A stretch of 27,870 nt of DNA from a virus. Its lineage: Duplodnaviria; Caudoviricetes. The stretch lies in IMG/VR virus record IMGVR_UViG_3300011338_000581, positions 1 through 27,870 of that record; one strand, written 5' to 3'. Position numbers and translations under genes: made by a program. A model generated the notes under the pieces. It was not told where the DNA came from. It did not search any database and saw only the letters and a list, made by a program, of their open reading frames with translations. Every line of letters begins with the position of its first letter. Within the stretch, counting starts at the first letter, position 1. Below are positions 1,859 through 6,895 of this stretch, in pieces.

Positions 1859-3148
1859 TTATGTAGCGGACGAAGCACCAACGATAAGTGAACCAGGCAC
1901 ACGGGCGGATGCCGTAGCACTGACGTTACCGATGTCAAATGCACTGAAGGCATAACGCTCGGTTGCCTTGAATGCCAACGCATCCTCTTTGAAGTACTGC
2001 TGATCCGATACCTCGATGGTAACGGAGCGGCGGTCACCGAATGCCGTACCAACCGAGAGGTCACCAAGCAGGATGTATGGCGTGCTCGCTGCGAGGGTCT
2101 TCTGCATATTTTGCACGAACACGACATCATAGCCAAAGAGCTTAGGCTGTGCGCCAAAAGCCTGCTGGAGGTCAAGGATAGCGTTTCCGCTGAGTGCGTT
2201 GAGCAGAGGAGCGATGGCGTTGTACCAGATCTCCTTGTGCATATACCACTTGGCGTTAGCTGCGTAGGTTGGCAACCGTCCTACCATTGCAGACAGGTTG
2301 GTAAGCGTTGGAGCATACGTGATTGTCTGACCGGTCGTGAACTGCACGAGGGATGCGATGTTAGCCTTGGTGGCGTTCGCATTGTAGACAGCGTACAAAC
2401 ATCCGTCAATGCTGGTTGTGGCATCTACTGCATTGTTGAAAACAACACGGTCTTCTTCCTTAGCAAGCACGTAAGCCATGTCACGGGCAAGCGATGCGCC
2501 AAAGTCGATGATGCTGTCTTCTGCCAGTTCCTTGGAAACCTGTGTAAGAACAGCAGCCTTCTTAGCAGTCAGGCTGACCTGTGCAAAGGTCATGTCAGAC
2601 AGCGTGATGGCGGTGTTCTCACCCGGGTAGTAAACCGTGGTTGATGCAGTAGCGTTAGGTACACGGAGCGTGTCAGAACTCATCGGGTAGATGCGGCAGT
2701 TCTGACGAGCAATACCAAACTGCTCACGGAGGTAGATAAGGTCGCTGGACAGTGGATCTGGAACAGTAAAGCCACCAGCACTGTCTGTGCCTTCGTTAGC
2801 CTTGATGTGGTTCTTTACCCAGTCAGCAGCCTTGCGGTTGCCCATGATGGAACGTGCCCACTGGCCCCATTGATACGCCTTGTAGTTGCGCTCTTCGGAA
2901 GTATCACCAGGAAGCAGGTCTGTGATGCGCTTAGATACGCCACCGGACTTCCATGGCTTGTCTTCGACAGGAGCGGAAGCCACAGGAGCGGTAACTCCGA
3001 GGCTCTTGATGGTCTCGATGCGCTCTTCAATGCTCTTGGCTTCAGCCATTAGCGACTTGACCTGTGCAAGGTCACCATCACCGGAAGCAAGCTCCCGTGC
3101 GGTAGCAAGGACAGATTCCTTGCGGTTCTGCAATGTTTCGATTGTCAT
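1859..3148 (-). CDS. Major capsid protein, HK97 fold with N-terminal coiled-coil delta domain
   Basis: EGTDSAGGFTVP, F.QVSLTAKK.A....VSKELAEDS, KLFGYDV, LLGDL and F.ATER motifs. ATGA overlap with the protease gene. Confidence 0.95.
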   Translation of the reverse strand: MTIETLQNRKESVLATARELASGDGDLAQVKSLMAEAKSIEERIETIKSLGVTAPVASAPVEDKPWKSGGVSKRITDLLPGDTSEERNYKAYQWGQWARSIMGNRKAADWVKNHIKANEGTDSAGGFTVPDPLSSDLIYLREQFGIARQNCRIYPMSSDTLRVPNATASTTVYYPGENTAITLSDMTFAQVSLTAKKAAVLTQVSKELAEDSIIDFGASLARDMAYVLAKEEDRVVFNNAVDATTSIDGCLYAVYNANATKANIASLVQFTTGQTITYAPTLTNLSAMVGRLPTYAANAKWYMHKEIWYNAIAPLLNALSGNAILDLQQAFGAQPKLFGYDVVFVQNMQKTLAASTPYILLGDLSVGTAFGDRRSVTIEVSDQQYFKEDALAFKATERYAFSAFDIGNVSATASARVPGSLIVGASSAT

Positions 3149-4092
3149 AGTTGTGTTAGCAACTCCAAGCGGGCCAACAGTTCAGCTCGCTCATTAACGT
3201 GGGCTTTCGCCTCGACTACGAGATCCGGTTGCGTCTCTGGTTGGTCTGCGTCCCGCAGTGAATCCCAAACGACAGGGGCTAGCCGTTTAGCGGCTGACCG
3301 GCTAAGACCGACTGCATCCCGCAGCCGACGTTCTACACCCCGCAGGGAAGCGGGCTGAATACACTTAGCACCGTGCATGGCGTATAGCTGCTTTGCACGA
3401 TTAGCAAACTCATTGATGATTGCCTCTGCCATACTGGCATCTGCAACCATCCCGATACCTTCGGACATGGCTTCGTAATACGCTTCCATGCCTTCATGGA
3501 TTAGGTCAGCCTCTGCCATCTTGAAAAGCTCAGCGGCGTATTCTTCAGGGGATTGCTCTGGCATTGGCTCAGGCATCATCTCTTCTTCATCTTCCATCTC
3601 GCCCATGCCGTAGTACTCCTCCAAAGACTTGACGCTGTTACGGAACTCCGCAGGTGTCGGGGTAATCGATGCCTCAGCGATAGGCCAGCGGATGATTTCG
3701 GAAGCACCGCCCATGCTTTTGCGCTCAACCATGTGAGCGGCAGCACCGGAACTAAAACCCATCTTGCCTTGCTTGCAAAGCTTGGCGATCATCTTGCCGT
3801 ACTCGTCTGCCATGTCTAGTTGTGCTTCGTACCAAAGCCCCTCAGAATCCATCTTGATAAAGCCAGAGCCGATAGACTTCTTGCCTACCTGTGAATCCAT
3901 GCCGTGATGGTAGTAAACATTCAGCGGGACACGCTTGCCTTCTTCGAGTGGGAATCCGTAGTCGGTTGCCTTGGTGAAATAATCACCTTCAAGGTCGGTT
4001 GCCTTGGAATCTCCAAAGCGCACAAGGTATCCCTTGACATAACCAAGCCTATCGCTCTTGATGCCGTCTACGAATGATGTCAGCACGTCCAT
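3145..4092 (-). CDS. HK97-type prohead maturation protease
   Basis: Start MDVLTSF at 4092. D.EGDYF, YHH, GLWYEAQL, GFSSG and EASITPTPA motifs; acidic linker and C-terminal extension. Confidence 0.9.
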   Translation of the reverse strand: MDVLTSFVDGIKSDRLGYVKGYLVRFGDSKATDLEGDYFTKATDYGFPLEEGKRVPLNVYYHHGMDSQVGKKSIGSGFIKMDSEGLWYEAQLDMADEYGKMIAKLCKQGKMGFSSGAAAHMVERKSMGGASEIIRWPIAEASITPTPAEFRNSVKSLEEYYGMGEMEDEEEMMPEPMPEQSPEEYAAELFKMAEADLIHEGMEAYYEAMSEGIGMVADASMAEAIINEFANRAKQLYAMHGAKCIQPASLRGVERRLRDAVGLSRSAAKRLAPVVWDSLRDADQPETQPDLVVEAKAHVNERAELLARLELLTQL

Positions 4093-4113: not shown

Positions 4114-5190
4114 CTATATGAGCTCACGTAGAGGCCGTACACGGGTGTTAGGCCCCCAGTCTTGGTTTGGTATCACCTGCACGAAATCAGCAAGCGGTTT
4201 GCCTTCCATATACATGGCGTATCTTTGTGGCCCCATAATCGCCAACTTGTCACCTTCCGACAATCCAGCAAGGATACGCTCAGGTGTTGCTACCGGCGGG
4301 CGTGTGTCCGGAATAGAAGAATCCCCGGTAATCTCTGCCCATGACATCGTTACCGGAACCATGACGCATCTACAGTTAGGATGCGATGGCATGATTTCAT
4401 CTGTGGCCGAAAGCGTACCAGACAATGCCAGACAAGCCAGACAAACCCTGCTGTCCTGCGTGGCTTGCCGTCTGTATCCTTGCACCGCTGGGTTCTGTGT
4501 ATAGAGTTGCCGTTGTGCTTCACGGGCACTGCGGATCATCTCAGTACGGGCAATGGTCTCTGCACGTTGCCTGCCAATATCAGCTGCACGTCTTACACGC
4601 CTTGCTACTGTCCGTGGGCCTTCACCAAGCGAGATGCCCTGTACCAAAGCCATCTGCATAGCATCCGTGGTTACTTGGGGGATGGTGTCAAATAAGACAG
4701 CCAGAGGGCTACCATCGCCTGCGAACCCGACAAAGGCCTGCAAGGACTCATCAGGTAGGTTTGTCCATGAAGTACCAAGGGTAACGCCTGCGGGCTTTTT
4801 ACCCGCTGCCGTTTCCACAAGGCTTTGCGTTGCATCATTAGCAAGTATTGCGCTTTGGAGTTGACCATCTGCGGTTATCGTTGCTCCCTCGATGCTGAAC
4901 TTCTTCAGGTTGCGCCCAAGCTCTTCGATGTTGTCAATGATGCGTTGCCGCATCCAGAGTATGGTTTCGCTTGGGTCTTCACCGTTATCCATTCGCTCTT
5001 GGATACGACCTTCCAGCGCTTCCAGTTCATCGATGCTCGCCTTGGTAGCTGCCTTGTATGCGCGTTGCATCCGGGATATGGCTACGCCTTCACGCTCCAG
5101 CAAATCGTTGCGAAACTTTTGGCTGGCGGCATAGATTCTGCCCGTGCCGTCGTCTACCCGTTTGAGATGTTGCACATCTCGTACCCGTAA
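4114..5190 (-). CDS. MuF / SPP1 gp7-like minor head protein; start uncertain (GTG 5175 or entry by -1 frameshift at 5190-5196)
   Basis: RAETIARTE, DSRVCLACLAL.G and PSHPNCRC are MuF motifs. No C-terminal toxin extension. Confidence 0.9.
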   Translation of the reverse strand, partial: LRVRDVQHLKRVDDGTGRIYAASQKFRNDLLEREGVAISRMQRAYKAATKASIDELEALEGRIQERMDNGEDPSETILWMRQRIIDNIEELGRNLKKFSIEGATITADGQLQSAILANDATQSLVETAAGKKPAGVTLGTSWTNLPDESLQAFVGFAGDGSPLAVLFDTIPQVTTDAMQMALVQGISLGEGPRTVARRVRRAADIGRQRAETIARTEMIRSAREAQRQLYTQNPAVQGYRRQATQDSRVCLACLALSGTLSATDEIMPSHPNCRCVMVPVTMSWAEITGDSSIPDTRPPVATPERILAGLSEGDKLAIMGPQRYAMYMEGKPLADFVQVIPNQDWGPNTRVRPLRELI

Positions 5191-6878
5191 AAAGGGTGAG
5201 ACTTGTACACTACCCCCGGAGTGCAACAGTCAATGCTTTTGCCATCAGGCTGCATAGCGTCCCGCTTGGATGTAGCCCAGCGGAAGCCAGCATCACCGCC
5301 CCACAAGTCCCAAGCAACCCTACCGGGTGATGGGAACCCATCTTCACCTGCATTGAAGCCTTCAGCCTGCTTGTCTACTTCATGCCGGCTAAAGAAAGAG
5401 TACATCCGCAAGATGGTGTCTTCGCTCAGGTTCTCACCATTGACAATCTGGTTAGCCCTTGCCAAGCCTACCCTCGTGCCACCATCGAAACCTTCAGCCT
5501 TCCAGTCAAGCGCCCGCTGTGCTGCTTCCTTCATGCCGGCAGTTGGTCGTGCTTTCGTCTCGAATGAGCGGATCGCAGGGATAGGAGCATCGGTAGTCTG
5601 TACCGGGATGGCTTGCGGGTGTAGCTGCCCTTCATCCTCTGGCACGGCTTCAAGGCCGGCAATGCGCTTTGCTTCCGCACGGTCAATGATGCCAGCCTTG
5701 TACAGGCGCTCTGCCCGTTCGGCCTCAGCCGCTAGGTCATCAGCCAGCGCCCGCACGGTTTCAAGGTCGTACTGTACAAAGTCACCCTCTTGGGTCTCTG
5801 GGTACTCTGGCAGGAGGTCGGCTGTAATAGCATCAGCAAGGGTACGCAGGAGTGGCACCATGCCATCTTCCCACGCTGCCTGCTGGGCGCGCTCGTAGTT
5901 ACTGTAGGTGCTACGCTCCAAGCCTGAACCAAGCCCTAAAACCATCGGGTTTATGCCAAGGGCTGAACAGATACGCTCCTCCGGAACACGTCTCACTGAA
6001 TCTAGTGCAAGCTCTGACGGCGTAAGGCTTACCCGGTCAAGTTTGTATGCGCCGGTCATAACCACGATGCCACCGGAACCGTCCCCGGTTAGGTCTTCGT
6101 GAAGTTGGCGCTTCACCTGCCGTGCATCATCCATCGAGATATCAACGGTCTGGTCTTTGGCATCAGGGCCGACGATAAGCGATGGCATAGCACCGTTGGC
6201 AAGCAAGCCGTAAGCGGTAGTGCTTGCGGTGTTATCGGTGGCTATCTCGCGCAGTACAGCCATGACAGGACTTCGTCCTAACCGGATGTCCTGCGGGTCA
6301 CGGTTGTAGCGGATGTGGATGATGTCTGATACCGGGATATCAAAGGAGCGCCCATCCGTTGTGTAGACATAATGCGTCAACGGGTTTACACCGTTACCAA
6401 CCGGTCTAACCATGTCTTGCGGAAGGAACTGCAAAGCGGTCACCACGCCACGGGTTGTAGATCGAATCTTGCGGAGGTACGTGTTGCCGAATAACTTGTA
6501 GTCCTGAATGGCCCAGCCCCAGAAAAGGCTACCCATTATCATCGGATCAGGTTGAGCCATCAGCTTGATTACCGGATGGTCTTCAACAGGCTCGGCTTGT
6601 TGGCTATCTACCGGTCTGTAGTATTTCGGTGTGGCCTGCGGGTAGTTACGAACGTACCAGTCAATCGCGCTTGCCACGATGCCGTTTAGGCCAAGGTCAC
6701 CGGCTATGCGTGACCAGTCTTTGGTGCTTCCAGGAAGCGCACGGCGTAGCAATGTCTGCAGCTGACCGGAACCGTAACCGGTTAGGTAGATGTCCCGTGA
6801 CTGGGACAATGGAAACGGTAGTGCCTGTGTCGGGTTGGCTGCGGCTTTACGTCCTAGGAAGCGGTCAAAGATGCCCAT
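5154..6878 (-). CDS. Portal protein (HK97 family) with a C-terminal extra domain, 574 aa
   Basis: True start MGIFDRFL at 6878. GNTY, DIIHIR, GRSP, NGAMPS, ICSALGINPMVLG and YSN.E motifs; located after terL. Confidence 0.95.
   Translation of the reverse strand: MGIFDRFLGRKAAANPTQALPFPLSQSRDIYLTGYGSGQLQTLLRRALPGSTKDWSRIAGDLGLNGIVASAIDWYVRNYPQATPKYYRPVDSQQAEPVEDHPVIKLMAQPDPMIMGSLFWGWAIQDYKLFGNTYLRKIRSTTRGVVTALQFLPQDMVRPVGNGVNPLTHYVYTTDGRSFDIPVSDIIHIRYNRDPQDIRLGRSPVMAVLREIATDNTASTTAYGLLANGAMPSLIVGPDAKDQTVDISMDDARQVKRQLHEDLTGDGSGGIVVMTGAYKLDRVSLTPSELALDSVRRVPEERICSALGINPMVLGLGSGLERSTYSNYERAQQAAWEDGMVPLLRTLADAITADLLPEYPETQEGDFVQYDLETVRALADDLAAEAERAERLYKAGIIDRAEAKRIAGLEAVPEDEGQLHPQAIPVQTTDAPIPAIRSFETKARPTAGMKEAAQRALDWKAEGFDGGTRVGLARANQIVNGENLSEDTILRMYSFFSRHEVDKQAEGFNAGEDGFPSPGRVAWDLWGGDAGFRWATSKRDAMQPDGKSIDCCTPGVVYKSHPFYGYEMCNISNG
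5164..5196 (-). other. Candidate -1 programmed ribosomal frameshift signal (C CCU UUU plus hairpin)
   Basis: Heptamer at 5196-5190 is in the portal frame and its -1 frame is the MuF ORF. GAGATGT-GCA-ACATCTC stem starts 9 nt downstream. Confidence 0.65.
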
Positions 6879-6895
6879 GTTCCTAGTATCCCACA
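6879..6895 (-). promoter_or_regulatory. TGTGGGATACT-N6-ATG motif (copy 1)
   Basis: AGTATCCCACA at 6885-6895, 6 nt from portal ATG 6878 and directly after the moron terminator. Confidence 0.7.

Follow-up and report, generated by a model that had tools for sequence, protein, structure and literature searches.

Head module and the portal-MuF junction

The window (the whole stretch of DNA that was analysed; 27,870 bases of a virus record) carries a head module on the minus strand. The genes and signals that are needed for the description of the junction are as follows.

Minus strand: head module in the order terminase, portal, MuF, prohead protease, HK97-type capsid
5154..6878, minus strand: portal gene (HK97-type, PF04860 match), 574 aa from the ATG at 6878; stop codon TAG at 5156-5154
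5268..5552, minus strand: domain of about 100 aa (phrog_2859, function unknown) near the portal C-terminus, flanked by the portal body and the slip site
5190..5196, minus strand: slippery heptamer C CCU UUU in the portal frame, kept in relatives
4114..5196, minus strand: MuF (PF04233), 360 codons in the -1 frame, counted from the slip site
3145..4092, minus strand: prohead protease (PF04586); lies downstream of MuF and has a promoter-like motif of its own
6885..6893, minus strand: promoter-like TGGGATACT; its distance to the portal ATG is exactly 6 nt

The MuF gene directly follows the portal gene, as in the MuF1 / SPP1 gp7 family, and its match to PF04233 scored 57.6 bits (cut-off, 29.6). The portal codons on the minus strand are CAC (5198-5196), CCT (5195-5193), TTT (5192-5190), and TAC (5189-5187) at the slip site, and 11 sense codons stand between the heptamer codons and the portal stop. 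The -1 frame at the site (CCC TTT TTA CGG) is the MuF ORF, which is open to 4114. The first-pass annotation of this DNA had proposed a -1 frameshift at this heptamer (5196-5190, 12 codons before the portal stop); its coordinates, its assignment of the -1 frame to MuF, the 7-bp hairpin that it placed 9 nt downstream (5180-5164), and its lengths of the products (574 aa for the portal protein and 921 aa for the predicted portal-MuF fusion) were all reproduced.

The sequence TGGGATACT lies six bases before the ATG of the portal gene, of the protease gene, and of the gene at 1765, and we infer a leaderless start for the portal. Among 120 complete heptamer loci, the motif was found at the portal start with the same spacing in 119, and it never occurred in the junction or in MuF; MuF would thus depend on the portal transcript.

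Collection of related loci

Related loci were collected by MuF protein similarity, and not by the slip motif. A MuF match was obtained for 312 loci, 285 of which also had a portal match, and these gave 185 distinct junctions; the 27 loci that were dropped (no portal match) were cut at a contig end or too distant. Junctions with more than 70% MuF identity were classed as close (153 junctions, which are related and hence not independent events), and the 22 distant junctions with the heptamer have 37-53% MuF identity. Near-identical DNA was present in riverine and freshwater metagenome runs. Annotated phage records numbered only 17 (identity, 27-37%), and the host look-up through MuF returned only distant relatives (about 30% identity; eight genome loci, five of them Chloroflexota), while an Atlas search named no host. 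Neither the sequence search nor the fold search gave a solved MuF structure. Several relatives have long C-terminal extensions on MuF.

Conservation of the slippery heptamer

In-frame heptamers that follow the pattern X XXY YYZ (Y = A/T) were found six times in the 6109 codons of the 13 long ORFs of the window, and only one of them lies in the portal gene. Since this is about one per 1000 codons, a single heptamer is weak evidence, and the case rests on conservation. The alignment of relatives, which had been suggested as a check on the frameshift, bore it out: 175 of the 185 distinct junctions (MuF identity down to 37%) have MuF in the -1 frame and C CCT TTY in that of the portal, and the MuF ORF was open in the -1 frame from the site in all 175. 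A sequencing or assembly error was ruled out, because the phase was the same in these 175 distinct junctions. The Phe codon of the heptamer was TTT in 168 and TTC in seven, both of which are permitted by the slip rule. In a later scan for more loci, three of four had the portal-MuF pair, and all three had the heptamer. A scan with the motif gave 32 matches, almost all of them to loci already in the set, and 28 of the 32 held up in a strict check of both frames; this pattern was built from the same loci and is therefore not independent support. According to the available text of PMC4066793, motifs of the H_HH.U_UU.Y type belong to the most efficient ones in E. coli.

Synonymous choice was examined at four-fold columns with 132 portal genes that were less than 95% identical, all classed as heptamer-bearing. 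The CCT of the heptamer was the sole column with a single codon among 116 conserved four-fold columns of the portal; the other 115 vary, and the 20 other Pro columns use three to four codons each. CCT persists in the GC-rich clades, where it accounts for 7% of Pro codons. The codon before CCT encodes His, Asn, Ser, Arg, Ile, or Asp, and its third base is always C. The heptamer site is conserved beyond the need of the protein.

These data bear on the explanation that no recoding takes place and that the motif is kept only by constraint on the portal C-terminal peptide, together with the overlapping MuF peptide. Past the site, the portal-frame tail is indeed conserved, its Gly and Tyr codons varying synonymously. 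However, the third base before the Pro codon stays C under six different amino acids, and the -1 frame is closed by a stop within three codons upstream of the site in 54 of the 175 heptamer junctions, so that overlap cannot fix the heptamer bases. Moreover, Pro-Phe with other codons and no MuF start was found in none of the 185 junctions (none of the 10 non-heptamer junctions has Pro-Phe here with other codons), and this explanation leaves no route to MuF codons 10-41. We regard it as scarcely credible.

Candidate initiation codons of MuF

Two further features concern the place at which MuF translation could begin independently.

5173..5175, minus strand: GTG proposed by the first-pass annotation as the MuF start; present in 1 of the 153 close junctions, the one identical to the window
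5068..5097, minus strand: first in-frame MuF ATG (5070) and the block of low synonymous variation (codons 33-40) before it

The earlier statement that MuF has no ATG near its start, and that the GTG at 5175 has no SD of note, was correct; the GTG is not the sole candidate, however, as the TTG at 5226 is also in the MuF frame of the window. Neither codon is conserved, and both were rejected as the true MuF start. An ATG is often found at -10; it was likewise rejected, as in most cases a stop comes after it at -3. Between the heptamer and codon 25, ATG, GTG, and TTG were absent in 152 of the 153 close junctions, and in 71 of the 153 they were absent from the whole open stretch. The search for homologues with a conserved MuF start gave a divided answer: the close relatives had none, whereas seven distant lineages that lack the heptamer have their own ATG, and GTG or ATG stands at the +4 codon in 14 of the 22 distant junctions.

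Coding selection acts on MuF before its first ATG: codons 14-41, which lie past the portal stop and before this ATG, showed 91% amino-acid conservation with normal synonymous diversity (ratio, 1.18 for codons 14-31). At codons 10-12, which precede the portal stop, the variation is synonymous in the -1 frame and non-synonymous in the portal frame, which places the entry into the -1 frame between about codon -2 and codon 10, that is, at the place of the heptamer. In the AlphaFold model of MuF, residues 1-13 form a disordered linker and residues 18-70 a confidently predicted helix, and the same helix opens MuF in the relatives with a separate gene and in those with a fused one. A start at the codon-42 ATG would cut the modelled helix in half.

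It could still be supposed that MuF is made only separately, from ATG 5070, from a near-cognate codon, or from the +4 GTG of the GC-rich clade through translational coupling, and that the heptamer is kept for some other reason. In accordance with this, the codon-42 ATG is present without change in 96 of 96 close sequences, and before it stand codons 33-40, the least variable synonymous block outside the slip site (ratio, 0.32); four codons after the site, GTG is found in 13 and ATG in one of the 22 distant junctions (TTG at +2 or +3 in two more), and starts of this kind are used by gene callers; and the seven distant relatives mentioned above do start MuF on their own ATG. However, codons 14-41, upstream of that ATG, are under coding selection and make up half of the predicted helix, and such a route would leave the invariant CCT without an explanation. 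In addition, the codon-42 Met is missing in several distant loci, the +4 codon is GTA, ATA, or TTA in the close clade, and no SD of note precedes ATG 5070, as was the case for GTG 5175. We therefore consider a purely separate start improbable. In the GC-rich distant clade, a coupled separate MuF start may operate beside the frameshift, and more generally a minor separate start may exist on top of it. Gene callers mis-start this MuF, giving versions of 318-380 aa.

Hairpins and SD-like element around the heptamer

The heptamer is flanked by the following elements.

5164..5180, minus strand: 3' hairpin of 7 bp, 9 nt after the heptamer, covarying in close relatives
5206..5225, minus strand: 5' hairpin with a 6-bp stem and an 8-nt loop; compensatory changes are seen both from clade to clade and inside clades
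5212..5217, minus strand: SD-like GGGGGT in the loop of the 5' hairpin (GAGGT or GGAGGT in distant clades)

The site of the 3' hairpin folds, yet the wider 80-nt region is no stabler than its shuffles (z, -0.72). In close relatives, C-G was exchanged for A-U in 12 of 44 variants (0 of 500 shuffles), and 83% of the cells were paired and 17% unpaired (slid controls, 21-38%). The expectation that this hairpin would be conserved, as a 3' stimulatory structure 4-10 nt after the heptamer, was borne out by compensatory changes among close relatives and failed in the distant clades, where it is not kept in position and other hairpins of mixed strength are found (weak in L275 and L294). RNAalifold did not recover the 3' hairpin in the consensus of 30 close sequences, and it gave no long-range structure or pseudoknot between the site and the low-variation block.

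The 5' hairpin, which had not been described in the first-pass annotation, ends 9 nt before the heptamer. Three pairs of its stem change on both sides, with 40 double-change cells (0 of 500 shuffles; slid controls lower); 30 of 47 variants were aligned for this test, the shifted L275 and L294 being left out, and the counts are due mostly to the division into two clades. The 5' hairpin is better kept than the 3' hairpin. The SD-like element precedes the heptamer by 15 nt in 173 of the 175 junctions and, as GGAGG, by 13 nt in the other two; in the deepest clade it is another stem that carries GGAGG at 13 nt, even though the encoded peptide is unrelated. The available text of PMC5009743 gives 9-14 nt for the stimulation of -1 shifts by an SD, by which the 15-nt spacing here is marginal, and it is near the edge of the 6-17 nt used in the study of PMC4066793, as far as the accessible part of that paper goes. 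The whole recoding signal is about 70 nt long.

A conserved hairpin 5' of a pyrimidine run could also be seen as a sign of transcript slippage, in which RNA polymerase would add an extra U on the C3U5 run with the aid of the nascent 5' hairpin and so give the same fusion. Hairpin-assisted transcript slippage is known from insertion sequences. The U run is, however, only five long and goes down to three in 7 of the 175 junctions (those with TTC), as the ribosomal X XXY YYZ rule allows; the phase to the portal codons is always kept; and the hairpin ends 9 nt short of the heptamer. Among the indels listed for assembled contigs of relatives (three RNA runs and one DNA run; contigs drop rare forms), none was at the U run. 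We judge this origin of the fusion to be very improbable.

Junctions without the heptamer

The 10 of 185 junctions that lack the heptamer comprise seven with a separate MuF ATG, two in-frame fusions, and one other (L228).

L081-L083, L225-L227, L284: MuF has an ATG of its own, at the portal stop or next to it
L254, L295: in-frame portal-MuF fusions
P0064, P0070-P0072: further in-frame fusion proteins (36-42% identity)

In L228, MuF is in the +1 phase and has no start codon; a search for relatives of this locus found none. In a quick tree, the states cluster, and L081/L083 (separate start) form a long branch inside a heptamer clade, which hints, as far as a quick tree goes, at interconversion of the separate-start and heptamer states.

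Proposed mechanism

Taken together, the conservation of the site and the coding selection downstream of it make it highly probable that a programmed -1 ribosomal frameshift at the end of the portal gene yields a portal-MuF fusion. A ribosome whose P site holds Pro and whose A site holds Phe would slip back by one base, with tandem slippage of tRNA-Pro from CCU to CCC and of tRNA-Phe from UUU to UUU. The putative stimulators are the SD-like loop, 15 nt before the heptamer, and, for the close clade only, the 3' hairpin. A fraction of the ribosomes would shift, so that MuF would become the C-terminal tail of some portal subunits; fused and plain subunits could then co-assemble in the portal ring and carry a few copies of MuF into the prohead.

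The prohead protease might subsequently free MuF at a conserved Lys of the linker, for which the candidate site is as follows.

5158..5163, minus strand: conserved Lys (then Arg) in the MuF linker, a putative prohead-protease cut site

HK97-type proteases probably cleave after Lys. In 173 of the 175 junctions a Lys precedes the MuF helix motif by 7-9 residues, and Lys residues are present in the same linker of the fused and of most separate MuF forms. A literature search on prohead-protease specificity gave nothing on HK97-type cut sites, and the release of MuF is therefore the weakest step of the scheme. Similar Lys-Ser motifs occur at likely maturation points of the capsid protein and the protease.

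A broader claim would combine four parts: the frameshift as the only route to MuF in this group, a wider role of such frameshifting, as a means by which tailed phages in general load a defined number of MuF molecules into the head, a shift rate governed by the new 5' hairpin with its SD in the loop at a fixed distance, and release by the protease at the conserved lysine. As a whole we advance it only tentatively and think it rather doubtful.

Comparison with known systems

The comparisons below refer to the available portions of the cited papers. As in the -1 shift of the G/GT tail chaperones of lambda and other long-tailed phages (PMC5009743), an X XXY YYZ heptamer lies near the end of a morphogenesis gene; in lambda, the minority product with a C-terminal extension sets the ratio of two proteins (PMC5009743). 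In contrast to G/GT, the pair here consists of the head proteins portal and MuF, and not of tail chaperones encoded before the tape measure gene, and its products are predicted virion components, while those of lambda are transient chaperones. The extensions in T3, T7, A2, A118, PSA, and SPP1 (gp17.1*) (PMC5009743, PMC6316719) resemble the present case in that some of the copies of a virion protein gain a domain through recoding; those domains are mostly Ig-like surface domains on major proteins, whereas here a whole internal head protein (PF04233), which other phages encode as a gene of its own, would be added to the portal.

The -1 signals of dnaX and of IS911/IS3 (PMC4066793, PMC5009743) also have an SD-like element upstream and a 3' structure downstream of the heptamer. 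They differ from ours in the heptamer (A AAA AAG there, C CCU UUY here) and in the SD-like element, which is here at 15 nt instead of 9-14 nt and in the loop of a covarying 5' hairpin. This covarying 5' hairpin with an SD-like loop at fixed spacing is what is new here.

In SPP1 (gp6/gp7), as in the window, the MuF gene is directly after the portal gene (PMC6316719, PMC5576092, PMC7302621); gp7 binds the portal and is packaged in one to two copies (PMC5576092, PMC6316719). The proposed co-assembly would fit this portal binding and low copy number. In-frame portal-MuF fusions are described in Microbacterium clusters EA/EB (PMC6316719, PMC5576092, PMC7302621), and such fusions also occur among the relatives found in this study. 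Compared with SPP1 and with the genetic fusions, the link predicted here would be covalent but partial, by recoding, and so would represent a third state, intermediate between separate genes and a complete fusion.

Our search of the full-text literature, from which subscription journals are largely absent, found no description of a portal-MuF frameshift, nor was there one in the available text of PMC7911831, PMC7302621, PMC4066793, PMC6316719, PMC3483164, PMC10732093, or PMC10052503. In the accessible portions of PMC5009743 and PMC3711429 the word "portal" does not occur, and in that of PMC5576092 "frameshift" does not.

Implications for the phage head module

To our knowledge, frameshifts in phage head modules are known only for capsid extensions. 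If the reading given here is true, a conserved recoding event would be added to this module, together with a mechanism for how a few copies of MuF get to the portal vertex. In many phages, MuF proteins carry polymorphic toxins or other cargo, as the available part of PMC5576092 describes, and the rate of the shift could therefore set the dose of the cargo. Within a single family, the partial fusion would then be an intermediate state that links separate genes with full portal-MuF fusions.

Proposed slip site, portal tail and L228 junction

At the proposed -1 slip site itself, a small stem can be folded from ACCC/GGGT around the U run (5200-5183); it was predicted in the consensus of the close relatives and is stronger in the GC-rich clade. 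The zero-frame tail of the portal (5198-5175), with its FYG-type motif, resembled the N-termini (MFYD..., MYYG...) of MuFs that have a start of their own in distant relatives (loci L284, L081, and L227), a likeness hinting at a short targeting peptide. In the related locus L228 (1125-1180; a single contig), MuF lay in the +1 phase to the portal without a start codon, and the portal end read AGG TTT CGA AGG TAA. These codons may allow a +1 slip; alternatively, the locus may be an in-frame fusion with an assembly error. Relatives of L228 were sought and none was found.

Further heptamers in the window included in-frame C CCA AAY sites (n = 2) in an ORF of 782 aa:

25426 and 23947, minus strand, in ORF 26118-23770

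Domains of portal and MuF

An unnamed viral domain of about 100 aa, flanked by Lys-Ala and Lys-Ser motifs, was absent from some relatives (e.g., L077):

5552-5268, phrog_2859, inside the portal C-terminus

Among the close relatives, and leaving the slip site aside, synonymous diversity was lowest at MuF codons 33-40 (5097-5074), where a structure was sought and none was found. In close MuF relatives (P0003-P0005, P0037, P0001, and P0042), either an insertion labelled as intein-type by Pfam (PF14890) adjoins the HPNCRC motif, or the C-terminus bears a variable extension about 300 aa long.

Promoter-like motif before three genes

The motif TGGGATACT-N6-ATG occurred at:

6893-6876, minus strand, before the portal gene
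4107-4090, minus strand, before the protease gene
1780-1763, minus strand, before the 1765 gene

The form TGGGATA(A/C)T-N6-ATG was kept in distant clades. The motif is likely a late promoter, which would yield leaderless mRNAs, and its reader is perhaps the phage's own sigma-70-like factor (17929-17108).
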